From: a virus
Reading direction: 5' to 3' (one strand)
DNA: 43,550 bases
UHGV virus genome: UHGV-0212646
The notes below the pieces were generated by a model, which was not told the DNA's origin, searched no databases, and saw nothing but the letters and a program-made list of their open reading frames with translations. Position numbers and translations under genes: made by a program. The stretch's first letter is position 1. Each line of letters begins with the position of its first letter. Below are positions 14,563-34,186 of this stretch, piece after piece.

Positions 14563-15225
14563 CTATGCCGGGATCGTAAGCACCTGTCCAGGATAGATCA
14601 AGTTGGGGTTCTTGATTCCTGGATTAGCTGCCGCAATTTTCTTGTATTGGCTGCCATTTCCATAATACTTCTTTGCAATCCCCCAAAGGGTATCGCCAGA
14701 CTGGACGGCATGGGTCTTGTTTTCTGTCACTGCGGGATTGGTTTCTGCAGACGCAGACGTATCTTCCTGCTTTACTGTAGCTGCTGCCGTCTGTACCGCT
14801 ACATACCGTTTTCCCGGTGCCTTGTATTCCAAAAGCTTGATCGTCAGGTACTTATCCCCCTCTTCTCCAGCTTTTTCTACAGCCTCCACGCTTTTTACCA
14901 GTACCATAATACTGATATCATCTGTAATATCGTTAGAGGCAATAAAGCGGATTGGCTTTAAGTCCTTCTGGGCCTTACGAAACATTTTTTCATAGTAATC
15001 CGCATCGGCCTTTGCACCGGGGTTCATATAGTGATAATCCTGACTGGGAAATTCCGCTTCAAAACTAAATTCTTCCAGGCCATAATAAGATGGGACAGAA
15101 ACCTGTCCTGTCCCAAGTACCTGGTAAGTCTCTATATTCAATTCCCGATTCCTCTTGATCTCCTCTGGATTGACGGGGAGCTTGTATTTCTTATTCCCAT
15201 ATTTAAAATAAACTGAATATGACAT
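14563..15225 (-). CDS. LysM-domain tail protein (XkdP-like)
   Basis: C-terminal LysM: HAVQSGDTLWGIAKKYYGNGSQYKKIAAANPGIKNPNLIYPGQVLTIP. Confidence 0.75.
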   Translation of the reverse strand: MSYSVYFKYGNKKYKLPVNPEEIKRNRELNIETYQVLGTGQVSVPSYYGLEEFSFEAEFPSQDYHYMNPGAKADADYYEKMFRKAQKDLKPIRFIASNDITDDISIMVLVKSVEAVEKAGEEGDKYLTIKLLEYKAPGKRYVAVQTAAATVKQEDTSASAETNPAVTENKTHAVQSGDTLWGIAKKYYGNGSQYKKIAAANPGIKNPNLIYPGQVLTIPA

Positions 15226-17201
15226 TATCCCGGCACCCCCTCTGGAGCTGTGGCGATCACCTCTTTTAGACGATCAATCATATGACCCACCACACCGTCA
15301 GTGTCAGCTTCTTTTGTGATAGGACCGGTAAATTCCACCTTGATATTAGGCGCAAGGGTATTTTGGGCGATCCGGGCCACGTAATCCCGTTCTGCCAGTT
15401 TCCGCATCCACTCGATGTCCTCTTTATCTGTCTCAACCTTTACGGCACCGCCTTTACCTGTACCTTTTACAGTGGCAGGACTACCAGCAGTAGCAAACTG
15501 TGAAAGATCAATGCCGGATCCGCCAGCCCCATCCAAATTTGGATTGAAACCTGAAAACAGGTTTGAGGCTTTGTCCGCCAGACCGCTTCCTATCTCATAT
15601 CCTTTGTTGGCAAAATCAGCGCCATTAACAAAATCCTTTTTCTTCACGACTTCATTCCAGTCAGAAGCGGTTTTTGCAGAAGCTGCTGCTTTTTCAATTC
15701 CTGCCTTAAAATTATCCAATCCTGCTGAAATCTGAACCTCTACTCCTGGAATACGATTTATAATAGCTTCAACCGACCGGGCCATTTCTGTCATATATCC
15801 AACCACGGTTATGGCCAGATCATAAAAGAGGATTTTAACGGCAGCAACAGGGTGATTCCAAACATTGGCAAAGAAATTGACTACCTCTGCAATAACATTG
15901 TAGATGAATATAAAGCTATTTGTTGCAGATGCCGCAAGCGCGCCTAATGCTCCGCCAATTATTCCTGTTCCTGAAAGGGTTGCTCCCGTAAAATGATTGA
16001 CTGCTGCAACTCCGGCATAGAAAGCAGCTGCAAGTACTAAAACCAGCCCTACAATCCATACAATAGGGCACGCGTATAATGCAGAATTAAGTCCTAACTG
16101 CGCTGTTGTTTCTGCCCAAGTTGCTCCAGTTGTTGCCCACAATGATAATGCATATAACCCTGCACCTATTGCCTGAGCCCCAAATCGAGCCGCTGATATA
16201 AGTGCCAAACCATTTAAAGCCAACTGTGCTCCTGCATAAATTCCCAAAGCCACAGCCGCCGCCCAAATAAACGGTGATACCATCGGCCAGGCAGCAATGC
16301 AAAAATCTATAAATCCTTCTGTTGCTTCCCCTGCCAGATAAATCAAACCAATAAAGTTATTTAAGGCGGTTTGTACGCCTGCTGAATTCAAAGCGGTATT
16401 TACCTTTTCAAACACCTCTGCAAAAGCCTGTGTGCCTGCATTCTTAATTTTCTGCCAGGTATCTGCAAACGTAGGCGTCATCTGCGAAAATTTTCCATTA
16501 ATCTCATCTGCGGCTTGGAACATCGCCCCTTTGATGATATCTGCCGTAATTGCGCCGTCTGAGGACAGTTCTTTTAATTCTGCCTTAGTCTTTCCCATAT
16601 ACTGAGCGATTGCATCAGCTACCATAGGGGCGTTCTCCATTACGGCAACAAATTCATCACCTTGTAGTCTTCCAGACGTCATAGCCTGCGTCAGCTGGAG
16701 GAAAGCGGAGTTCTGTTCAGCCGTACCTGCCCCTGACACCTTGAGGGATTTGGTAAGCAGTTCTGTAAACCCTACTGCTTCCAGATTGCTCCCAAAGGTA
16801 TCGCCTGCCAGCATTTTAAGCTTTGCTGTCGCATTGGCCATCTCTGTATAATCGCCGCGAGATCGGTCCGCTGCCGCAAAAATATCTTTTTGGAGAGTCC
16901 TCTGTTCTTCCAGGCTTCCAGTGATCATAGCCAGTCTGGCGTTTGTATTGGTGTATGTATCTGTCAGGTCCATTCCCTTTTTTACCGCCGCCAGACTCAC
17001 TACTGTTTTAACGAGCCTTGATAGGCTTGAGTTGGCTACATCGGCAGCGGCTCCCGTACGTCCTAAAGAACCATTGAATCCATCCGTGTTTTTACTGGCT
17101 CCTAAAATAGCCTTAGCTGCCTTATCGGTGTTTTCAACAATCTTCTTGATCTGGCTGCTGTAACCATCCATCAGACGAAACATTGCGTTTAAAGTCGGCA
17201 T
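15225..17201 (-). CDS. tail tape measure protein
   Basis: 658 aa, Ala/Gly-rich hydrophobic central segment, position after the chaperone. GGAAGGTGGG SD. Confidence 0.8.
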   Translation of the reverse strand: MPTLNAMFRLMDGYSSQIKKIVENTDKAAKAILGASKNTDGFNGSLGRTGAAADVANSSLSRLVKTVVSLAAVKKGMDLTDTYTNTNARLAMITGSLEEQRTLQKDIFAAADRSRGDYTEMANATAKLKMLAGDTFGSNLEAVGFTELLTKSLKVSGAGTAEQNSAFLQLTQAMTSGRLQGDEFVAVMENAPMVADAIAQYMGKTKAELKELSSDGAITADIIKGAMFQAADEINGKFSQMTPTFADTWQKIKNAGTQAFAEVFEKVNTALNSAGVQTALNNFIGLIYLAGEATEGFIDFCIAAWPMVSPFIWAAAVALGIYAGAQLALNGLALISAARFGAQAIGAGLYALSLWATTGATWAETTAQLGLNSALYACPIVWIVGLVLVLAAAFYAGVAAVNHFTGATLSGTGIIGGALGALAASATNSFIFIYNVIAEVVNFFANVWNHPVAAVKILFYDLAITVVGYMTEMARSVEAIINRIPGVEVQISAGLDNFKAGIEKAAASAKTASDWNEVVKKKDFVNGADFANKGYEIGSGLADKASNLFSGFNPNLDGAGGSGIDLSQFATAGSPATVKGTGKGGAVKVETDKEDIEWMRKLAERDYVARIAQNTLAPNIKVEFTGPITKEADTDGVVGHMIDRLKEVIATAPEGVPG

Positions 17202-17204
17202 TCT

Positions 17205-17805
17205 TTCCCACCTTCCTAAGACAGTTTAGCCGCCTGTCTCTTTTCTTCTTTAATCCGTAGATCAATGCTCGCATAAATAAATGCCCGCTCCCTGGGGTCT
17301 ACCGGATCATCTGCCCCGCAGATTCCGGCGAGCACCCCGGGCCTGATATGAAGTCTTTGCAGGGCGAAATGAGCGTAATTCATCTCTCCATCGCCCTGCT
17401 CAATCAGTTTTTTGCCTCTTCGATATCCTCGTTGATATCTTTATCCAATCCAGAGAGGTCAAGAGCCGCCTGCATCAGAGTCGCGAACTCACCCACATAG
17501 AGCATTTTTGCCAGGGTTTTGGGAGCGCCTAAGGTTCCCCATCTTTTCTGAAGATCTGCATTGTTTAAGTCTGGCTCTACTACTGCTGTAGCCGTCAACT
17601 CACGATTGTAATTGATCCGGTCAAACACTTCATTACCCTTCTTATCCCTTTTCGTATGTTTCCGGATAAACTCCTCGTTTTCCTGCTGAGTAATGGGCCG
17701 GATTACAAAGGGAACCGGCTTGCCATTCTCCTGAAAACGGTTTGATACAATCACCTCTCTGTTTTCTGCCTGTACTGGGTGCAAAAATGCATTTAAACTA
17801 CTCAT
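17205..17805 (-). CDS. tail assembly chaperone; short form 17404..17805, long form via a -1 frameshift at A_AAA_AAC followed by TGA
   Basis: Slippery heptamer rc(17407-17413) sits directly before the stop. The -1 frame stays open for 66 more codons to 17205. Confidence 0.65.
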
Positions 17806-17871: not shown

Positions 17872-18126
17872 TTATGCAGTTCTTCGTTCTTCATAGCCAC
17901 GAATAAAACAATATAACATTCTATTTAATTTCGGATCATTCATCCTTAAGACCTTCAAGACAAGCGACGCCTGTTCAAGTTCCAATTCTGACAATTCAGA
18001 AAATCTTTTACTATCATCCATCTTAGCGCAAATGTTAACTAATAGGCTAATATGCTCTAAAACCATTTTCCGTCGTACCCTGCGACAATTTTGAGTTATT
18101 TCCTCTCGTATTTCCATCATTTTCAT
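17872..18126 (-). CDS. small putative regulator (84 aa), translationally coupled to the antirepressor gene
   Basis: AGGAGGTG SD. TAATG stop/start overlap with the upstream gene. Confidence 0.4.
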   Translation of the reverse strand: MKMMEIREEITQNCRRVRRKMVLEHISLLVNICAKMDDSKRFSELSELELEQASLVLKVLRMNDPKLNRMLYCFIRGYEERRTA

Positions 18127-18956
18127 TACGCCACCTCCTGATAACAAACCCGGCACTTATTAACACTGCCATTTGCAAGCCGGAACTCGATCAATGAGGG
18201 ATAGCCGTTCTCTTCCAGCCATTCCTGAACCTTTTCGAGAACACTTTCTTTGTACTGAACGGTCACACCGTCATGGCCGTTCCGGCTGTAAGCTGTCTTT
18301 ACAATTTCATCTGTAAAAAGGTCGATTTTCTGGATGATGGCGCTTACTGCTTTATCATGTGGTCTACCGGACTCAGAATAGATGCCGAGTTTCTTTGCCA
18401 TAGTAGTGCAGTCCCATAACGTCTGTGTAGTGCTGTCTGTAATCAACGGAATCTGAATGTCAATGTCGGCCTGTTCCTTGTAAAGCCGTTTCGCCTCTGC
18501 CGCGATGAACATCGGGTCAACTCCTGCATCTTTGAAAATGCCGCTGACGGTCTTCACAAGCATGTTGGCGGCGGAGAGGTTCTTTTTCTTCTTTTCGGGC
18601 TTCTGGGTGATGCCCTCTCTGATCGTTTTCTCCTTATACTTCTTTTCCACCTGGATGAAGTAACGGCGTACTTGCTTGCCTTTCTCATTACGCTCCAACA
18701 TGGCCATTTCCTTGGCTGTATCAAGTTTAATGATATGGTCTATTTTAGTCTGTCCGGAAGGTGCTAAAATTTTAGCGGCTTCATAATCCTCTTTTTCTAC
18801 TGCCTCACAATCGCCCAAACGGTTGCGAATCCAATCGCGATAATTACTCTTTACTTCCAAAACTGAATGAAGTTCTGAACCATAAACTACTTTCTCGCCG
18901 GTGCTGGTTTCGTATACTGGTACTAACTCATTTTCAATTACTTTTAAATTCTGCAT
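18126..18956 (-). CDS. phage antirepressor, AntA N-terminal domain + KilA-C domain
   Basis: AAAGGAG SD, then ATG at 18956. LVPVYETSTGEKVVYGSELHSVLEV...RRYFIQVEKKY is AntA-like. Confidence 0.7.
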   Translation of the reverse strand: MQNLKVIENELVPVYETSTGEKVVYGSELHSVLEVKSNYRDWIRNRLGDCEAVEKEDYEAAKILAPSGQTKIDHIIKLDTAKEMAMLERNEKGKQVRRYFIQVEKKYKEKTIREGITQKPEKKKKNLSAANMLVKTVSGIFKDAGVDPMFIAAEAKRLYKEQADIDIQIPLITDSTTQTLWDCTTMAKKLGIYSESGRPHDKAVSAIIQKIDLFTDEIVKTAYSRNGHDGVTVQYKESVLEKVQEWLEENGYPSLIEFRLANGSVNKCRVCYQEVA

Positions 18957-18981
18957 AATAAAAACTCCTTTCAAAAAATAC

Positions 18982-19011
18982 TTGCCAAAAGGAGAAATAC
19001 AGTGCTATTAT
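18982..19011 (+). promoter_or_regulatory. promoter TTGCCA-N18-TGcTATTAT for the convergent sRNA-b
   Basis: Extended -10. Confidence 0.45.
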
Positions 19012-19017
19012 TTATAT

Positions 19018-19082
19018 ACTCCTTTTGGGGTGTGGAGCAACCATTTCACTTTGGTCGGTGGGGTTGCTCCTCTTTTTTTATT
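19018..19082 (+). ncRNA. candidate cis-antisense sRNA-b ending in the terminator hairpin ggagcaacc-N19-ggttgctcc-T9
   Basis: The + strand hairpin plus U-run overlaps the stop codon of RHH gene b on the minus strand. Confidence 0.4.
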
Positions 19083-19254
19083 TTAGGTCATCCTCCAGTT
19101 TTTTAATTCCCCGTCTTATTGCTTCTGTCTTTGCCACTTTTTCCTGTTCACAGTATCGTTCAAGAATATTGTTACTTTCAATATCAAGCCTTACATGAAT
19201 AGGTTTTGACTTTGGATTCTCTACTGGTGGTCTTCCTGTTCTTGGGCTCATCAT
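19078..19254 (-). CDS. ribbon-helix-helix (CopG/Arc-like) small DNA-binding protein with an RTGRP AT-hook-like N-terminus, paralogue b
   Basis: MMSPRTGRPPVENPKSKPIHVRLDIESNNILERYCEQEKVAKTEAIRRGIKKLEDDLK. Upstream TTGACT-N17-TATATT promoter on the minus strand. Confidence 0.55.
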   Translation of the reverse strand: MMSPRTGRPPVENPKSKPIHVRLDIESNNILERYCEQEKVAKTEAIRRGIKKLEDDLK

Positions 19255-19334
19255 ATCACCCACTTTCTGTAGCCCATAAATATAATATAATTGATGTAGC
19301 CCAATAAGTCAAGCACTGTTTTCTCAAATTCTTC

Positions 19335-19363
19335 TTGAAAGAGGCTTCCTTTGCTGATATACT
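19335..19363 (+). promoter_or_regulatory. promoter TTGAAA-N17-TATACT for the convergent sRNA-a
   Basis: Near-consensus. Confidence 0.5.
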
Positions 19364-19369
19364 ATATTT

Positions 19370-19441
19370 ATCAGAGAGAAACCTCTTTGGTGTATTAGAG
19401 ATTCGTGATACTTGGTAGGTGGAACGAATCTCTATTTTTTT
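19370..19441 (+). ncRNA. candidate cis-antisense sRNA-a ending in the terminator hairpin agagattcg-N19-cgaatctct-T7
   Basis: Overlaps the stop codon of RHH gene a. Loop ACUUGGUAGGUGG is conserved with sRNA-b, and the stems covary. Confidence 0.4.
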
Positions 19442-19605
19442 ATTTTGGCATATACTTCACGGATTCCTTGACGAATTACATCGGATTTTGACATTCCTGT
19501 TTCTTTACAGCAATACTCTAAAATCTCTATATCTTCATCTGACATTCTGATTCTAGTCTCGTGCTTTTTTGGATTATCCGTTGGTCTGCCTGTTCTTGGC
19601 GACAT
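19432..19605 (-). CDS. ribbon-helix-helix small DNA-binding protein, paralogue a (57 aa)
   Basis: GGAGGAGGG SD, then ATG at 19605. Product MSPRTGRPTDNPKKHETRIRMSDEDIEILEYCCKETGMSKSDVIRQGIREVYAKIKK. Below the ORF-track cutoff. Confidence 0.55.
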   Translation of the reverse strand: MSPRTGRPTDNPKKHETRIRMSDEDIEILEYCCKETGMSKSDVIRQGIREVYAKIKK

Positions 19606-19703
19606 TTTCTACCCTCCTCCTAATATATAAGTGTAGGGTTTCAGTACCCAACAGCCAGTTGGGACTTAATCCTCTCATTGTTTAAGCTGTATAATGATTA
19701 GGC

Positions 19704-19898
19704 ATTGGTATGACGACACCTCCTAGGACCACTTTAGGTGTCCGCAAGAAAGCCAGTCAGCCAGCCTATCATTTGCAGCCGTTCGATTTATGCAGGTTGG
19801 ACTGTCCTTGTACATGTCCGTTTGATACCCCAGGAGATTGAATAAGCAGTGAGGAATGCTGGATACCATGCAAATTCATTTTCAGGAGGTACATTAGG
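19704..19898 (+). ncRNA. candidate IS110 bridge/guide RNA region (5' flank of the transposase), downstream of a TGtATAAT -10
   Basis: Structured ~190-nt leader, e.g. gacacctcctaggaccactttaggtgtc. Assignment rests on knowledge of the IS110 family, not on homology. Confidence 0.3.
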
Positions 19899-21113
19899 AT
19901 GTACAACGCTGTCGGTATTGATGTCTCAAAGGGCAAGAGCACCATCGCAGTCCTGCAGCCCGGAGGCGTCATTGTCAGGAAACCCTTTGATGTTTTTCAC
20001 ACTTCCCAATCCTTAAAAGAACTATCAAATTATCTGGCTTCACTTGAAGGGGATACAAGGATTGTAATGGAGTGTACTGGCAGATACCATGAGTCCATGG
20101 CTAACTCCCTCTCTAATGCCGGGTTTTTTGTAACTGTCGTCAATCCGCATCTGATTAAAAACTTTGGTAACAATACGTTGCGCAAGGTCAAATCTGACCC
20201 TGCTGATGCTAAAAAGATAGCACGCTATACCCTTGACAACTGGGCTGAACTGCGGCAGTATTCATGTATGGACAATACACGTAACCAATTGAAAACCTTA
20301 AATTCACAATTCAGCTTCTTTATGAAGCAAAAGGTTGCCGCAAAGGCAAACCTGATTGCACTGTTGGATAATACATACCCCGGTGTAAATAAACTGTTCA
20401 ACAGCCCTGCCCGTGAAGATGGCAGTGAAAAATGGGTCGATTACGCTTACTCATTCTGGCATGTGGACTGTGTCCGTAAAACCGGCTTGAAAGCTTTTAC
20501 AGTGCGCTATGAAGCTTTCTGCAGGAAACACCATTATATTTATCAGCCTTCCAAACCAGAAGAACTGTTTAACGCCTCTAAAGAGCTTGTTGCCGTGTTC
20601 CCAAAGGAGACGTCCTATAAGCTTCTGATCCAGCAGAGTATCCAGCAGCTCAATCTTGCCTCTGCCCATATCGAACAGCTCCGCAGGGAGATGAATGCAC
20701 TTGCTTCCACGCTCCCAGAATACGAGGTTGTCATGGGCATGTATGGCGTGGGCAAAACTTACGGTCCCCAGCTCATTGCTGAGATTGGCGATGTTTCAAG
20801 ATTTACCCATCGGGAGGCAATCACTGCTTTTGCAGGTGTCGATCCCGGTGTGGAGCAGTCAGGGCAGCACAACTCAAAGAGCAACAAAGCTTCCAAATGT
20901 GGAACCGGCAGGCTCCGTAAGACCCTGTTCCAGGTCATGACCACCCTGCTCCAGAATGCCCCGGAGAATGAACCTGTCTACCAGTTTCTGAACCGGAAGC
21001 GTTCCGAAGGAAAACCTTACTATGTGTACATGACTGCTGGTGCGAATAAGTTCCTCCGCATCTACTACGGCAAGGTAAAAGCACATCTGCGCAGTCTGGA
21101 ACAAAACGAATAA
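19899..21113 (+). CDS. IS110 family transposase (DEDD N-terminal domain + Transposase_20 C-terminal domain)
   Basis: N-terminus AVGIDVSKGKSTIAVL. C-terminus GVGKTYGPQLIAEIGDVSRFTHREAITAFAGVDPGVEQSG. Confidence 0.9.
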   Translation: MYNAVGIDVSKGKSTIAVLQPGGVIVRKPFDVFHTSQSLKELSNYLASLEGDTRIVMECTGRYHESMANSLSNAGFFVTVVNPHLIKNFGNNTLRKVKSDPADAKKIARYTLDNWAELRQYSCMDNTRNQLKTLNSQFSFFMKQKVAAKANLIALLDNTYPGVNKLFNSPAREDGSEKWVDYAYSFWHVDCVRKTGLKAFTVRYEAFCRKHHYIYQPSKPEELFNASKELVAVFPKETSYKLLIQQSIQQLNLASAHIEQLRREMNALASTLPEYEVVMGMYGVGKTYGPQLIAEIGDVSRFTHREAITAFAGVDPGVEQSGQHNSKSNKASKCGTGRLRKTLFQVMTTLLQNAPENEPVYQFLNRKRSEGKPYYVYMTAGANKFLRIYYGKVKAHLRSLEQNE

Positions 21114-21367
21114 TCATTCCGTCTATTACGGCTTTCTTTTTGACCGGCTGATGAGGCGGTCTTAGAGTTGTGCCATAAAATCACTTCACAAAAATTTTCA
21201 AAAAGTGCTTGACTTTTTATTAGCAGGCTTTCTTTTGGTGACACATATATGATATTATATGGTGACACAAAAGTCAAGAGGTTTTTCATCTTCTTCACGC
21301 CTACCTCGTGAAATCAAAAAGGCCCAGCCTTTCGCTGAACCTCTTTCTCATTAAATATAATTGATTT

Positions 21368-22108
21368 TTATAATCCTAACAGCTGTTTCTTTTTTATTTC
21401 AAATTCCTCCTGCGTGATAATCTCCTCATCTAATAATTTCTTATACTTTAGTATTTCATCAGCTCCAGATACTACTTCTACATGATCCCCTTGTTTTTGT
21501 TCATTTTGGATTAATGTCAATTCTGTTAATATTTTCTGTAATGTCCCATAATAAACAGAATGCATCATACTTCCAGATTTTATATTCCCATTTGTTATTA
21601 TATTGATATATATTTCAGGATAAAGAGGGCTTTTCGTAATAAATTTTACTCTCAGTTCTTTTGTAACGCTTTTACTTCTTTTTTCTCCTGTAATTCCACC
21701 TACAATAGCCCCGACTCCGCCAAATAAAGCTCCCCCTACAACAGCACGTCCTATTCCCCCTTTACTTACTGTATCGCCATTCTCGATCACTTCATATCCT
21801 ACCATTTCATCAAAGGAAAACACTGTTCTATATGCTGGAATCTGCCATAAGTGATTCGCATAATCAATATATAAATATTTTTCTACCTTTTTATCTGGTA
21901 AAAATATTTTTGTGTATTCCTCTGACTTTTTTATTGCTTCTATGCATCTTCTAATTCTGTCAGACGAAACTTCTTTCCAATTGAGAAGAATTAAACCACT
22001 TCTCATTCGACAGTCTTTGCACACAAATCCATCTGCAATTTGCTTATCTCCCTTATGGCTTCCACAAATGCAACAAACTCCGCTCTTTGAAAATAATCCC
22101 ACACCCAT
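21368..22108 (-). CDS. AT-rich moron: zinc-ribbon + glycine-zipper + C-terminal SHOCT-domain protein
   Basis: CCICGSHKGDKQIADGFVCKDCRMRSG zinc ribbon. GGALFGGVGAIVGGITG glycine zipper. C-terminal ADEILKYKKLLDEEIITQEEFEIKKKQLLGL is SHOCT. Roughly 38% GC. Confidence 0.6.
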   Translation of the reverse strand: MGVGLFSKSGVCCICGSHKGDKQIADGFVCKDCRMRSGLILLNWKEVSSDRIRRCIEAIKKSEEYTKIFLPDKKVEKYLYIDYANHLWQIPAYRTVFSFDEMVGYEVIENGDTVSKGGIGRAVVGGALFGGVGAIVGGITGEKRSKSVTKELRVKFITKSPLYPEIYINIITNGNIKSGSMMHSVYYGTLQKILTELTLIQNEQKQGDHVEVVSGADEILKYKKLLDEEIITQEEFEIKKKQLLGL

Positions 22109-22163: not shown

Positions 22164-22643
22164 TTATCTCATATTCTCCGGCAATGTATAACTCTCCAGA
22201 TCGTCCAGGTCATCAAACGTAAAATCCGTATCCGTCGTGTTCAGATCCTCACTTCCATCCTCCAGATACGCAACAGGTACCTTTGCCAGGATACAGTCAC
22301 GCATTACCACCACACGCCGGCCAATGGTAGACGCCGGATCCTCATTTGTGGTCTGGATGCTGATCGTGGGAGTCTTCCCCTCTTTGACGTACTGCTGGTA
22401 AATCGCCAGAGCAGCCGGGCTTACATTATACATAGTTATGCTTCCCTTTCCCTCTGCCGCAACTACCTTATGCTGCTTCATCCGGTGGCCCAGAAGTTTC
22501 TTGCCTGTCACCGTAAATTCAATATTGGATTCAATCTTAGAGAGTTCAAAGAAGTACCGGTTCTGTCCGTCTACCGTGATGTAGGCGCTGCCCTCACTTC
22601 CAGTCACCAGGTCTTTGATTTTTGTGTAGTTCTTTCCTGACAT
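22164..22643 (-). CDS. tail tube protein (XkdM-like)
   Basis: Size and position after the sheath. Acidic C-terminus. Confidence 0.7.
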   Translation of the reverse strand: MSGKNYTKIKDLVTGSEGSAYITVDGQNRYFFELSKIESNIEFTVTGKKLLGHRMKQHKVVAAEGKGSITMYNVSPAALAIYQQYVKEGKTPTISIQTTNEDPASTIGRRVVVMRDCILAKVPVAYLEDGSEDLNTTDTDFTFDDLDDLESYTLPENMR

Positions 22644-22657
22644 ATTCTTTTCACCTC

Positions 22658-23707
22658 CTATGACAGATTTACGGTGATGTAAATCTTTTCTACACTGTCC
22701 ACTGGCTGAGTGAATACATCTACCACCACAGCATCGGAATCTGTTCCTGCATTCACTGTGATATCATCTGTTTCAAAATTCTGGATAGCAGCCATATTCT
22801 GAAGTGTGGTAAAATAATCCACCAATGCAGCTTTCAGCAGGGACCGTCCATCTGCGTTGTTATTGACTTTTCCCACATAGTTGCTTTCAAAGATAGTGGA
22901 GATATCGTTAGCAATATTATCGATCGTCCTGATAACCCGGTTCTTGGTGAACATCTTGCCTTTTTCTGCCGTTACTGTAGTCAGGGAATTGATATCATAC
23001 ACCACAGTTACGTTCTGGGCGCTGTCCGCTTTGAAGATCAACTTACCCGCTTTGACCGCATTCTCCATCTCTGCCTTTGTCATACGGGGATCCACATCGA
23101 TAGCACCCACATACTTCATGCCTGTGTTGGAAGTTGTAATGCTGGCCCCCGCTGTAGCTCCTGCTACCCACGCTGTAGTCTCCGCTGCAGTTAGGACTGT
23201 GCCGTCTGTCATGACAATCCCCTGTACCACATTGATGATTCCCTCTGAATCCGCCACATGGTTTGCCAGTACTGCCTGACACTTGACACCCTCGTCATCT
23301 CTCATAGCCTTAATCCATGTTGTAATCGCAGTCTTATTAGCAGACGCCGTTTCCGGCTCTGTATCGTAAGGGTAGCACAGTGTATTAAACTGCACTGTCT
23401 TCAGTTTCTCCAACGCCGTATTGACGGCTTCCGTATTGTGTGTTTCCGGCAGCTTGTAGATCAATACAGTTTTTGCCTTTTTAAGGGCCTCTGTAGCCAG
23501 TTTCTTATCATCCGCCGTAGCTTTTTCCGGATATGCCTGTTCTGTGGCTGTGATGGTATACATCTTTCCATCCTCGCCCACAGACATCTCCTGTAAAATC
23601 ACCACAATACCTCTGTCTCCCGGAGTGATCGACAAGGGCTCGTTTGTCTGGATGTTGATATAGGCCCCGGGTAGTACTTTGTTCTGAGATTCCCATGTGC
23701 CTGCCAT
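22658..23707 (-). CDS. contractile tail sheath protein (XkdK-like)
   Basis: 349 aa, PBSX-type sheath sequence features, position. Confidence 0.75.
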   Translation of the reverse strand: MAGTWESQNKVLPGAYINIQTNEPLSITPGDRGIVVILQEMSVGEDGKMYTITATEQAYPEKATADDKKLATEALKKAKTVLIYKLPETHNTEAVNTALEKLKTVQFNTLCYPYDTEPETASANKTAITTWIKAMRDDEGVKCQAVLANHVADSEGIINVVQGIVMTDGTVLTAAETTAWVAGATAGASITTSNTGMKYVGAIDVDPRMTKAEMENAVKAGKLIFKADSAQNVTVVYDINSLTTVTAEKGKMFTKNRVIRTIDNIANDISTIFESNYVGKVNNNADGRSLLKAALVDYFTTLQNMAAIQNFETDDITVNAGTDSDAVVVDVFTQPVDSVEKIYITVNLS

Positions 23708-34078: not shown

Positions 34079-34114
34079 GGAACGTCTGGGTGGAGATCCC
34101 TAAACCAGGCTAAC

Positions 34115-34186
34115 GGATCCTACAGGAATCGAACCTGTGACACGGTGGTTAACAGCCACCTGCTCTGCCAGCTGAGCTAAGGATCC
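34115..34186 (-). tRNA. tRNA-Asn (anticodon GTT), phage-encoded, no encoded CCA
   Basis: Cloverleaf hand-folded: acceptor GGATCCT/AGGATCC, D-stem GCTC/GAGC, anticodon stem GGTGG/CCACC with loop CTGTTAA, T-loop TTCGATT. Confidence 0.8.

Follow-up and report, generated by a model that had tools for sequence, protein, structure and literature searches.

Two small genes on the minus strand of the 43,550-nucleotide viral genome UHGV-0212646 (the window, as the whole analysed stretch of DNA is called here) each encode a protein of 57 residues of the ribbon-helix-helix (RHH) type, and each is faced by a predicted small RNA on the plus strand, with a near-consensus promoter and a predicted terminator within which the stop codon of the RHH gene falls. 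A sequence-only reading of this DNA had proposed this pairing of an RHH gene with a convergent promoter, hairpin and terminator in each unit, with which the list of open reading frames, the promoter scan and the inverted repeats all agree, and had offered control of the RHH pair as one possible role. The question raised by this locus is what such RNAs would regulate. The most likely target of the countertranscript (ctRNA) is the cargo gene downstream, not the RHH pair, and in unit b this gene encodes an antirepressor of the AntA type. Antirepressors decide between prophage silence and induction, and their control in phages of gut Firmicutes is largely unknown.

Organisation of the two units

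The RHH-b gene (19078–19251, minus strand, counted from its MSPRTGRP start in the list of open reading frames) and the RHH-a gene (19432–19605, minus strand) encode paralogues with 40% identity, both of which match PHROG 876, annotated as 'transcriptional repressor' (E = 3e-16 for RHH-b). RHH-a lies above the cut-off of Pfam RHH_1 (PF01402; 25.6 bits versus 20.5) and has a weak precomputed match to PF10723 RepB-RCR_reg, with RHH-b, which falls under the Pfam cut-offs, assigned to the RHH class through its identity to RHH-a and the shared PHROG. The RHH homologues number 87, with residues G6, R7 and P8 of the N-terminal GRP motif invariant in the RHH alignment, and the family profile matches solved RHH structures, namely chains of SvtR, ParG, CopG and VapB, with CopG among the distant ones. 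Aligned with MAFFT, units a and b show a mean column identity of 73%. Whilst the description of the locus as tandem duplicated units holds insofar as the two are related, a recent tandem duplication is ruled out by the low identity of the RHH proteins, and the units are better regarded as diverged paralogous cassettes.

The limits of unit a also require correction. Of the stretch 19370–19720 originally ascribed to it, positions 19613–19720 are the left end of an IS110-family insertion sequence (19613–21229, plus strand; Pfam DEDD_Tnp_IS110 and Transposase_20), which lies outside the cassette, contains the transposase gene (19899–21113, plus strand), and shares 78% identity with MT836121 across 1630 nt; a megablast search of the element against plasmids gave no match. 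The boundary at 19613 abuts the Shine-Dalgarno (SD) sequence of RHH-a, with the native promoter of RHH-a cut off from its gene by the element.

Two further features had been left out of the initial description of the units, a second inverted repeat around each plus-strand promoter (18985–18994/19019–19028 in unit b, and 19338–19348/19378–19388 in unit a), and the antirepressor gene 3' of unit b. The latter (18126–18956, minus strand), the cargo of cassette b, encodes a protein of 276 aa with an AntA domain (Pfam E = 3e-16; PHROG anti-repressor Ant families), which would inactivate a repressor. Its start codon lies 121 nt past the RHH-b stop codon, and the gene is directly followed by an open reading frame of 84 aa (17872–18126, minus strand), with near-identical contigs having the same gene calls at the antirepressor region.

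The genes are ordered RHH-a, RHH-b, cargo, with the promoter of cassette b coming after hairpin 1 of unit a, and the same RHH-to-RHH-to-cargo series is found in the related loci L005, L006, L016, L019, L040, L066, L078, and L081. In the window, the cassette sits within the tail operon, in the same orientation, between the genes for the tube and the tail assembly chaperone. When the tube, tail assembly chaperone, SHOCT, and tape-measure proteins of the window were compared by tblastn with 80 viral loci, none was found near the cassettes, indicating that the insertion site is not conserved. Matches in a nucleotide search against phages were confined to the antirepressor gene and the end of the insertion sequence, and Ruminococcus gnavus phages with the same ant gene are without the RHH cassette.

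A putative operator at the RHH-b promoter

The promoter scan places the RHH-b promoter (TTGACT-17-TATATT) at 19284–19312 on the minus strand, and the box TGGGCTACA stands as a direct repeat on either side of its -10 element (19268–19276 and 19295–19303 in plus-strand numbering). Nowhere else in the 43.5-kb window does an exact copy of this box occur. Relatives share the layout TTGACTttt-box-TATAAT-box-AAAGTGAGGTGA-ATG, with the sequence of the box varying by locus. Judged by its sequence, the promoter with its two boxes looks autoregulated, an anatomy consistent with that of an autorepressor, and we infer that the RHH protein binds both boxes as its putative operator.

Predicted countertranscripts

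The promoters of the two ctRNAs, TTGCCA-18-TG-n-TATTAT in unit b (18982–19011, plus strand) and TTGAAA-17-TATACT in unit a (19335–19363, plus strand), each agree with the consensus at 10 of 12 positions in the promoter scan, which bears out their description as good sigma-A promoters. With its 5' end placed from the position of the promoter, ctRNA b is predicted to be ~62 nt in length (19018–19079, plus strand), and comprises a 5' hairpin (19018–19031), a 3' hairpin (19034–19070) with the loop AUUUCACUUUGGUCGGUGG, and a U-tract (19071–19079). The corresponding RNA of unit a is predicted to be ~74 nt (19370–19443, plus strand), with a 5' hairpin at 19370–19391, and a 3' hairpin at 19396–19434 with the loop GAUACUUGGUAGGUGGA.

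Both 3' hairpins have perfect arms followed by a T-run. A stem of 9 bp, as had been stated for both units, is present in hairpin b (19034–19042/19062–19070), whereas that of hairpin a is 11 bp (19396–19406/19424–19434). The overlap of a 3' arm or U-run with the RHH stop codon is as the sequence-only reading described it, with the TAA of RHH-b overlapped by the final two T's of the T-run in unit b, and the TAG of RHH-a positioned within the 3' arm in unit a, where the T-run is the complement of Lys-Lys codons. The overlap between ctRNA and RHH coding sequence comprises the stop codon only in unit b, and the stop codon and last two codons in unit a.

The predicted folds have z-scores of -4.3 for ctRNA b and -5.7 for ctRNA a. 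Model R1 scores ctRNA a at 54 bits and ctRNA b at 39.2 bits, and covariance model R2, trained on bacterial-genome relatives only with the window left out, gives ctRNA a 57.6 bits (E = 4e-8) and ctRNA b 39.4 bits (E = 1e-4). The loop motif ACUU(U)GGU.GGUGG is common to units a and b and their relatives. The predicted ctRNAs are probably made.

The possibility had also been raised that the hairpins are bidirectional terminators without loop conservation. The loop motif is kept in relatives, and a plain or bidirectional terminator is ruled out by the conservation of the antisense promoter across relatives and by the sense strand, on which the hairpin is preceded by an A-run but not followed by a U-run.

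Recurrence and covariation among relatives

Over 100 phage and Clostridia/Streptococcus loci contain the cassette in a recurrent order, consisting of a promoter with two operator boxes, the RHH gene, the two-hairpin ctRNA, a leader hairpin with the SD, and a U-tract. In 58 non-redundant relatives, an antisense promoter is followed by a spacer of 19–36 nt, a hairpin of 9–18 bp, and a T-tail, and 48 different stem sequences occur among them. Relatives keep the antisense promoter at the matching position, where it scores 10.7 on average compared with 8.3 for the best sense-strand site. A structure-aware search for the hairpin in other phages, proposed at the outset as a check, was carried out with model R1 and returned 63 matches in IMG/VR loci (viral contigs), with 62 more in one-genome-per-species loci; all of the matches lie opposite the RHH strand, and most lie on the RHH stop codon.

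Compensatory changes are present in 17 of 17 pairs in the viral set, with 87.4% of cells paired compared with 64% in shuffles and 40–55% in slid controls, and 91.5% paired in the independent genome set compared with 62.6% in shuffles, these pairing percentages being inflated by the fitting of the structural alignments to the covariance model. The helices contain 70 G·U/U·G pairs compared with 19 A·C/C·A mismatches, an excess which points to selected helices on the antisense (ctRNA) strand. The earlier suggestion, drawn from compensatory changes between the two units, that the RNA hairpin itself is under selection is thus upheld by covariation in both sets and by the strand bias towards the antisense RNA. 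An alignment of 20 ctRNAs with MAFFT and RNAalifold placed the stems out of register and gave a weak consensus, and was replaced for the final structures by a hand-specified structure and covariance-model alignments. A skipping-rope RNA was noted in the relative L028 in an Rfam scan by E-value.

The cargo of the relatives is varied, with an RHH-to-cargo gap of ~110–135 nt whatever the cargo. Of the long cargo proteins scanned, those with a family match are all of the antirepressor type (AntA, ANT/KilAC, Bro-N, Rha, ORF6N or ORF6C), one cargo protein of 171 aa has no Pfam match, and small cargo proteins scanned against PHROG and Pfam matched no family. No description of the cassette was found in the literature on antirepressors, antisense RNA, RHH/CopG proteins, the pT181 ctRNA, and prophages.

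Alternative folds of the antirepressor leader

The leader of the antirepressor mRNA (18957–19028, minus strand) contains hairpin 1 (19028 down to 18985), which encloses the ctRNA-b promoter. The 3' arm of this hairpin, CUCCUUUUGG (18994 down to 18985, minus strand), has the SD GAAAGGAG (18972 down to 18965) as an alternative partner, with the resulting SD hairpin followed by UUUUUAUU (18964 down to 18957, minus strand) and then by the AUG (18956). In predicted folds of unit b, blocking the part complementary to the ctRNA raises the pairing probability of the SD from 0.39 to 1.00. Across the cassettes overall, the SD has a mean pairing probability of 0.63, and of 0.88 once the ctRNA target is blocked, with the SD already paired in the fold of the free leader in some loci.

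Within the portion of the leader that the ctRNA leaves uncovered, 96% of cassettes have a paired SD (41% of control genes), 77% a stable hairpin (20% of control genes), and 43% a terminator-like hairpin (4% of control genes). In 79% of leaders the stem of hairpin 1 runs uninterrupted for at least 8 bp (6% of shuffles), and the alternative pairing extends over at least 7 bp in 66% of leaders (13% of shuffles). With ~43% of the SD hairpins being terminator-like, transcription attenuation and pure SD occlusion are indistinguishable. Hairpin 1 in the sense RNA of unit a (19338–19388, minus strand), identified from the inverted repeat and the fold, similarly encloses the ctRNA-a promoter, with no cargo gene directly after it and no U-tract after the alternative stem.

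Proposed mechanism

We consider it likely that the antirepressor is controlled by ctRNA-driven attenuation or SD occlusion, together with autorepression by the RHH protein. The RHH protein would repress its own promoter via the two short boxes flanking the -10 element, resulting in low sense transcription, and the strong convergent promoter in the intergenic leader would produce a two-hairpin ctRNA of ~60–75 nt with its terminator overlapping the RHH stop codon. The ctRNA would pair with the nascent sense leader, the conserved CUUUGG loop probably making the first loop-loop contact, and would cover hairpin 2 as well as the 5' arm of hairpin 1, so freeing the 3' arm of hairpin 1 to pair with the SD region of the next gene, ahead of the U-tract and AUG. 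Formation of the SD hairpin would then cause the sense transcripts to terminate, or the ribosome site to be hidden, or both; we infer this consequence of ctRNA pairing from the modelled folds. With an AntA antirepressor as the cargo of unit b, the module would govern prophage induction or anti-immunity in a manner similar to P22 immI, with unit a perhaps acting as a second cassette in series upstream, the 'cargo' of which would be cassette b. An efficient attenuator inside the tail operon would also affect late transcripts, which falls outside the account given by the proposed model.

Comparison with the pT181 family of countertranscripts

At the Rfam gathering threshold, the 43.5-kb window contains a tRNA alone. 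Among the antisense-RNA families, a scan of 18900–19900 at E ≤ 10 gave matches to none beside ctRNA_pT181 (RF00242), which matches over its full length at 39.7 bits in unit a (E = 7.8e-4) and at 27.1 bits in unit b (E = 0.33), both short of its gathering score of 56 bits. A 66-kb scan of 13 relatives gave no match to ctRNA_pT181 at E ≤ 1. The similarity is reciprocal, with model R2 picking out five ctRNAs of the pT181 family, each exactly in place and on the right strand (22.8–33.7 bits, E 0.0012 to 0.13), and giving 0 off-target matches in 69 kb. Model R1 also recovers ctRNAs of this family, again with site and strand correct.

The resemblance extends to the arrangement of the RNA and its target. 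The pT181 ctRNA has two hairpins and a U-tail, with the loop ACUUUGGUCAGGG in the 3' hairpin, as do the RNAs of units a and b, and the 3'-hairpin loop is near-identical between pT181 and the cassette, ACUUUGGUC(A/G)G(G/U)G. In both, the RNA is antisense within the leader of the gene that it controls or, in the cassette, would control, and the pT181 leader likewise has a hairpin, its attenuator, with the SD as the 3' arm, followed by a U-tract and AUG; the mechanism of pT181 attenuation is reviewed in PMC5703833. The two systems differ in that pT181 controls repC of a rolling-circle plasmid and does so without a Cop protein, whereas cassette b lies in a prophage tail-gene region with AntA downstream. 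Furthermore, the partner of the pT181 pre-emptor is the 5'-proximal arm of the terminator stem-loop (PMC5703833), whereas the competing arm of the cassette is separate, belonging to hairpin 1, which encloses the ctRNA promoter.

Comparison with P22 immI and plasmid dual control

By analogy, the arc-sar-ant region of P22 is the closest functional precedent. In P22, an RHH repressor gene (arc) is directly upstream of, and co-transcribed with, the antirepressor gene, and a convergent antisense RNA of ~69 nt has its terminator over the arc stop codon (sar 15021–15090, arc end 15022, and ant start 15091 in the P22 annotation), an arrangement also predicted for cassette b. Two RHH repressors are a further point of likeness. 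The P22-type module has been described as an 'ant moron' within the late operon (PMC2629481), comparable with the tube-to-tail-assembly-chaperone site observed here and the capsid-to-scaffold site in the Streptococcus phage MismyG.

In contrast to P22 sar, which runs across the entire arc-ant spacer and over the ribosome site of ant, and has its promoter inside ant, ctRNA b has a predicted 5' end at ~19018, and is not complementary to the SD (18965–18972) or AUG (18956). Starting ~45 nt upstream of the SD, it would have to act via leader refolding. Additionally, P22 mnt is divergently transcribed whereas the RHH genes here are in tandem, and the hosts here are Gram-positive, unlike that of the Salmonella phage P22. 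The Rfam sar family gave no sequence or structure match at E ≤ 10 in 18900–19900.

Joint control of one downstream gene by a small repressor and a countertranscript is established for the plasmids pMV158/pLS1 (CopG and RNAII) and pIP501 (CopR and RNAIII), and RNAI of pSK41, which has two stem-loops, induces SD sequestration at a distance (PMC5703833). The cassette resembles pMV158 in having an RHH repressor as the first gene of the operon, whereas CopR of pIP501 is an HTH protein and not an RHH protein. Plasmid dual control acts on replication initiators, whereas the cassettes would act on phage antirepressors and small proteins without known function. From these comparisons, the best reading of the cassette is as a functional analogue of P22 immI assembled from plasmid copy-control parts.

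Alternative explanations

Rather than acting on the cargo gene, the small RNA could act mainly on the RHH mRNA, with pairing at the 3' end leading to RNase III cleavage or a change in stability that tunes the repressor, as is seen in toxin-antitoxin pairs overlapping at their 3' ends; this corresponds to the cis-antisense control of the RHH pair suggested by the sequence-only reading. Such a role would suit the position of the ctRNA terminator over the RHH stop codon in nearly every locus, and the lack of a directly following cargo gene in unit a. However, the overlap with the coding region amounts to just 0–3 codons, the conserved alternative pairing uses the SD of the downstream gene, the RHH-cargo gap remains constant at ~110–135 nt for any cargo, and in the pT181 and pSK41 precedents it is the downstream gene that is controlled (PMC5703833), which together make control of the RHH mRNA unlikely. 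We also doubt strongly that convergent transcription alone is responsible, through interference or polymerase collision, with the hairpin a mere terminator and the RNA product functionless. While the strong, conserved convergent promoter is located inside the sense leader, and interference from a convergent promoter is known from pIP501 (PMC5703833), interference needs neither a conserved loop, nor a covarying 5' hairpin, nor pairing of the SD with an arm outside the ctRNA, all of which are found here, and the likeness to a trans-acting ctRNA family is reciprocal.

The sequence-only reading saw in this locus a mirror of the type I toxin-antitoxin layout. The convergent small RNA is indeed arranged as in type I loci, but the comparison fails, since the region contains no ORF for a small hydrophobic toxin and what the RNA overlaps is the gene of an RHH DNA-binding repressor. 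Plus-strand ORFs across the ctRNAs are not credible, since the predicted RNAs of 62 and 74 nt end at terminators, and the long cargo proteins matching a family are all of the antirepressor type, making a type I-like or addiction module with the small RNA as antitoxin very improbable. The anti-defence module that the sequence-only reading also suggested may still apply to relatives whose small cargo genes have no known function. It is equally hard to credit the locus to ordinary terminators or chance palindromes combined with chance promoter matches in AT-rich DNA. Although promoter-like sites are common in the region (10 found compared with 5.1 expected), the 125 model matches come from two independent locus sets and are all on the antisense strand, the covariation is strong, the spacing between promoter and hairpin is conserved, and the sense strand is without a U-run after the hairpin.

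A possible portable control cassette

More tentatively, and as a possibility to which we incline less than to attenuation of the antirepressor itself, a widespread and portable control cassette may exist in phages of Clostridia and streptococci, in which a CopG-like RHH autorepressor is combined with a pT181-type attenuator. The cassette would occur in many specificity variants, differing in operator boxes and ctRNA stems and perhaps non-cross-reacting, and would hold off antirepressors as well as dozens of uncharacterised proteins of 40–116 aa. It could be chained in series to form cascades, and would link plasmid copy control and phage immunity-I evolutionarily. If so, it would constitute a common switch in phages of Lachnospiraceae, Oscillospiraceae, Ruminococcus, Clostridioides, and Streptococcus, including the cultured phages phiCD211 and MismyG, and would connect P22 immI and pT181 copy control, two textbook systems. 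The small cargo proteins without known function would become candidates for new antirepressors or anti-defence factors. The pT181 attenuator is already a building block of synthetic RNA circuits, for which the diverged attenuator/repressor pairs of the cassettes could serve as a natural library.

Plasmid-borne homologues were found only on plasmids of Clostridioides and Clostridium. In the C. difficile plasmid locus L173, the sole plasmid homologue for which the flanks were read, an antirepressor gene lies downstream.

Two paralogous cassettes within the tail module

The window represents a contractile-tailed prophage of Clostridia type, with the majority of its genes on the minus strand. Its minus-strand tail module comprises the sheath (22658-23707), tube (22164-22643), XkdN-like tail assembly chaperone (17404-17805), and tape measure (15225-17201) genes, with a block inserted between tube and chaperone in the minus-strand order SHOCT protein, IS110-family element, RHH-a, RHH-b, antirepressor, and 84-aa ORF. 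The ribbon-helix-helix (RHH) genes RHH-a (19432-19605) and RHH-b (19078-19251) are both on the minus strand, and the sequence-only reading, which described tandem duplicated units of an RHH gene met by a convergent promoter and hairpin, had located both ORFs, both plus-strand promoters, and both hairpins correctly. Hairpin a has a perfect 11-bp stem (arms 19396-19406 and 19424-19434), with the TAG stop codon of RHH-a within its 3′ arm and a U-tract that is the complement of two C-terminal lysine codons. Hairpin b has a perfect 9-bp stem (arms 19034-19042 and 19062-19070), with a U-tract extending into the TAA stop codon of RHH-b. The predicted countertranscripts (ctRNAs) fold far better than shuffled sequences (z-scores of -4.3 and -5.7), and the two-unit observation is real and far beyond chance. 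The RHH proteins are only 40% identical, so the two cassettes are old paralogues rather than newly duplicated units.

The stretch 19613-19720, previously assigned to unit a, belongs instead to the IS110-family element (19613-21229), which lies on the plus strand, opposite to the RHH genes, and carries its transposase gene at 19899-21113. Its left end adjoins the GGAGG Shine-Dalgarno (SD) sequence and ATG of RHH-a, which has therefore lost its native promoter; unit a is a second cassette in series, its own promoter displaced by the insertion. The element is 78% identical over 1630 nt to a copy in MT836121 (L002 946-2563), which likewise lies directly against the GGAGG and ATG of a minus-strand gene. 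As both copies abut such a sequence, their positions hint at a target preference for ribosome-site-like sequences, and a bridge RNA could be encoded in the ~250-nt untranslated stretch that precedes the transposase gene.

Directly after unit b lies a gene absent from the sequence-only reading, encoding an AntA-domain antirepressor (18126-18956, minus strand), whose stop codon is overlapped by the start of the 84-aa ORF (17872-18126, minus strand). No family match was found for this ORF, which is probably co-expressed cargo, since near-identical contigs keep it alongside the antirepressor. The SHOCT-domain protein (21368-22108, minus strand; 246 aa; PHROG 888), encoded between the tube gene and the IS element, looks like another moron; its SHOCT domain is C-terminal, a zinc-ribbon-like motif lies at the N-terminus, and it also has a glycine-zipper region. 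The prophage also carries a tRNA gene (34114-34186, minus strand; Rfam tRNA, 66.6 bits).

Conservation of the predicted countertranscript

A scan of viral contigs with RHH-b as the query gave 80 loci, in nearly all of which the region 3′ of the RHH stop codon is built alike. A long hairpin begins at the stop codon, or the stop just precedes it, with stems that vary by locus (48 distinct, 9-18 bp) and a loop of ~11-20 nt bearing a CUUUGG(U/C)-type motif. A second inverted repeat follows, around a near-consensus promoter pointing back to the RHH gene (typically TTGAAA or TTGACA, 17 nt, TATAAT), and then an SD sequence, the next gene lying 110-135 nt past the RHH stop codon, a nearly constant distance. 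The mean best promoter score in these relatives is 10.7 on the antisense strand versus 8.3 on the sense strand.

The compensatory covariation from which the sequence-only reading argued that the RNA hairpin is under selection is strong in both viral and genome sets. The structure-aware search of other phages that it proposed, performed with a covariance model built from 20 ctRNAs with two hairpins specified (R1), gave 63 matches in the window and viral loci, with a further 62 in an independent bacterial set of one genome per species (Oscillospiraceae, Lachnospiraceae, Ruminococcus, Blautia, Flintibacter, and others). All matches run antisense to the RHH gene, the majority of them at an RHH stop codon. 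Compensatory changes occur in 17/17 pairs of the viral set, where 87.4% of cells are paired compared with 64% in shuffles and 40-55% with slid partners, and the genome set shows 91.5% compared with 62.6% in shuffles, though these percentages lean high because the alignments were fitted to the covariance model. The slid controls and the independent genome set, in which double changes number 296 against 78 in shuffles, nevertheless argue that the signal is real. The excess of G·U/U·G pairs (70) over A·C/C·A mismatches (19) points to the antisense strand, plus in the window, as the one on which the helices are selected.

Of 54 distinct hairpins, 35 carry the loop motif on the antisense strand and at least nine on the sense strand. 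In L013, L014, L018, L033, L047, L058, and L067, for example, the CUUUGG loop is inverted and hence on the sense mRNA. Either loop-loop recognition tolerates both arrangements, as a contact between two complementary RNAs would, or loops have been flipped between the arms of an inverted repeat. Such a contact would also fit the YUNR U-turn idea known from other antisense systems.

Similarity to pT181 and possible refolding of the leader

In a permissive Rfam scan of 18900-19900, both units match ctRNA_pT181 at full length on the plus strand (unit a 39.7 bits, E=7.8e-4; unit b 27.1 bits, E=0.33), with no match to other antisense-RNA families. As both scores fall below the gathering score of 56, and a larger scan gave no ctRNA_pT181 match in 13 relatives, membership of this family is not established. 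Conversely, a model from bacterial-genome cassettes only (R2), which scores the window units at 57.6 and 39.4 bits, picks out the pT181 ctRNA and those of four related plasmids, each at its exact position and on the correct strand (22.8-33.7 bits, E 0.0012 to 0.13), with no off-target match in 69 kb, so that the resemblance is reciprocal.

The pT181 ctRNA controls RepC synthesis, and the plasmid leader has the same design as the cassette, with a target hairpin (loop GCCCUGACCAAAGUUU) and, beyond it, a stem CGAUUCCUUAA/UUAAGGAGUCG with the SD as its 3′ arm, followed by AUUUUUU and AUG. In pT181, ctRNA binding allows this stem to form as a terminator, which is blocked by a pre-emptor sequence when ctRNA is lacking (PMC5703833). 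After RHH-b, the sense RNA of the window contains hairpin 2 (complementary to the 3′ hairpin of the ctRNA), then hairpin 1 (19028 down to 18985) with the ctRNA promoter inside it, the SD GAAAGGAG (18972 down to 18965), UUUUUAUU, and AUG at 18956. Two partners are possible for CUCCUUUUGG, the 3′ arm of hairpin 1: the SD or the 5′ arm of the same hairpin, CCAAAAGGAG, which lies inside the ctRNA-complementary part of the leader.

In folds of 47 leaders, blocking the ctRNA-complementary part raises the mean SD pairing probability from 0.63 in the free leader to 0.88, and that of the window from 0.39 to 1.00. Within the 62 nt preceding the start codon, 96% of cassette leaders have a paired SD versus 41% of the 227 control genes taken from these loci; hairpins of -8 kcal/mol or better occur in 77% versus 20%, and with a U-rich tail in 43% versus 4%. 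An uninterrupted hairpin 1 stem of 8 bp or more is present in 79% of leaders versus 6% of shuffles (38 distinct arm sequences), and the alternative pairing with the SD reaches at least 7 bp in 66% versus 13%. This anatomy, as modelled, supports ctRNA-induced refolding of the leader. By analogy, the outcome may be transcription termination as in pT181, SD occlusion as the countertranscript of pSK41 brings about, or both.

RHH repressor and comparison with P22

In our alignment, an N-terminal G-R-P motif is invariant across the RHH family, whose profile matches the solved RHH proteins SvtR, ParG, CopG, and VapB. RHH-a and several homologues also have a weak precomputed match to PF10723, a replication-regulator family of rolling-circle plasmids. 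Almost every RHH gene is preceded by a stereotyped promoter consisting of TTGACTttt, an 8-10-nt box, TATAAT, the box again, AAAGTGAGGTGA, and ATG, with a box sequence that varies by locus and a second copy that is direct in most loci and inverted in some. The window box, TGGGCTACA, lies at 19268-19276 and 19295-19303, its sole exact copies in 43.5 kb. Such paired boxes are how an autoregulated RHH operator would be expected to look, with binding by the protein presumed.

The most likely function of the cassette is dual negative control of the antirepressor, in which the RHH protein would autorepress the operon promoter and the pT181-like countertranscript would switch the leader to an SD-burying, terminator-like fold. 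Judged by its anatomy, the cassette would be akin to P22 immI in function and to plasmid copy control in its parts. In the annotated P22 genome, arc ends at 15022, sar RNA, encoded on the other strand at 15021-15090, has a terminator that covers the arc stop codon, and ant starts at 15091, with the sar promoter inside it. P22 and the window share the order RHH, antisense RNA, and antirepressor, an RNA terminator that overlaps the RHH stop codon, a pair of RHH repressors, and moron placement in a late operon (PMC2629481). Unlike sar, to which it had no similarity in the Rfam scan of 18900-19900, the window ctRNA falls short of the ribosome site, and it appears in our folding models to act via leader refolding. 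A 2025 review of phage small RNAs gives sar, c4, and 24B_1 as the antirepressor-acting RNAs, the terms "attenuat" and "Gram-positive" being absent from its text, and we found no description of the RHH-ctRNA cassette in the open-access literature searched.

Cargo and distribution of the cassette

The long cargo proteins scanned among relatives, encoded downstream of the RHH gene and leader, carry AntA, ANT/KilAC, Bro-N, Rha, ORF6N, or ORF6C domains, all antirepressor types, save one of 171 aa with no match in the domain scan. Many other cargoes are only 40-116 aa, with no PHROG match and no Pfam match above threshold (e.g. L007 2152-2358, L036, L043, and L073), and are candidates for small antirepressors or anti-defence proteins. 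The motif F-x-(L/F)-G-(Y/F)-x-Q-G-x-K-A recurs at the end of several small cargo proteins.

As in the window, a second RHH cassette takes the place of the "cargo" in eight loci. Named phages also have the cassette. The RHH and antirepressor genes of C. difficile phiCD211 and related phage-plasmids adjoin the RepR repressor gene. Streptococcus phage MismyG has the cassette, with all parts present in the sequence, between the minor capsid gene and the scaffold gene, and the loop of its ctRNA, UCAACUUUGGCGAGGGAG, closely resembles the pT181 loop. The bacterial genome loci L095, L143, and L167 hold up to three ctRNA cassettes in series within 3 kb, an arrangement that suggests regulatory cascades or arrays. 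In one viral contig, an RHH cassette is closely preceded by a skipping-rope RNA (L028 2272-2367; RF02924, 56 bits, gathering score 36.7).
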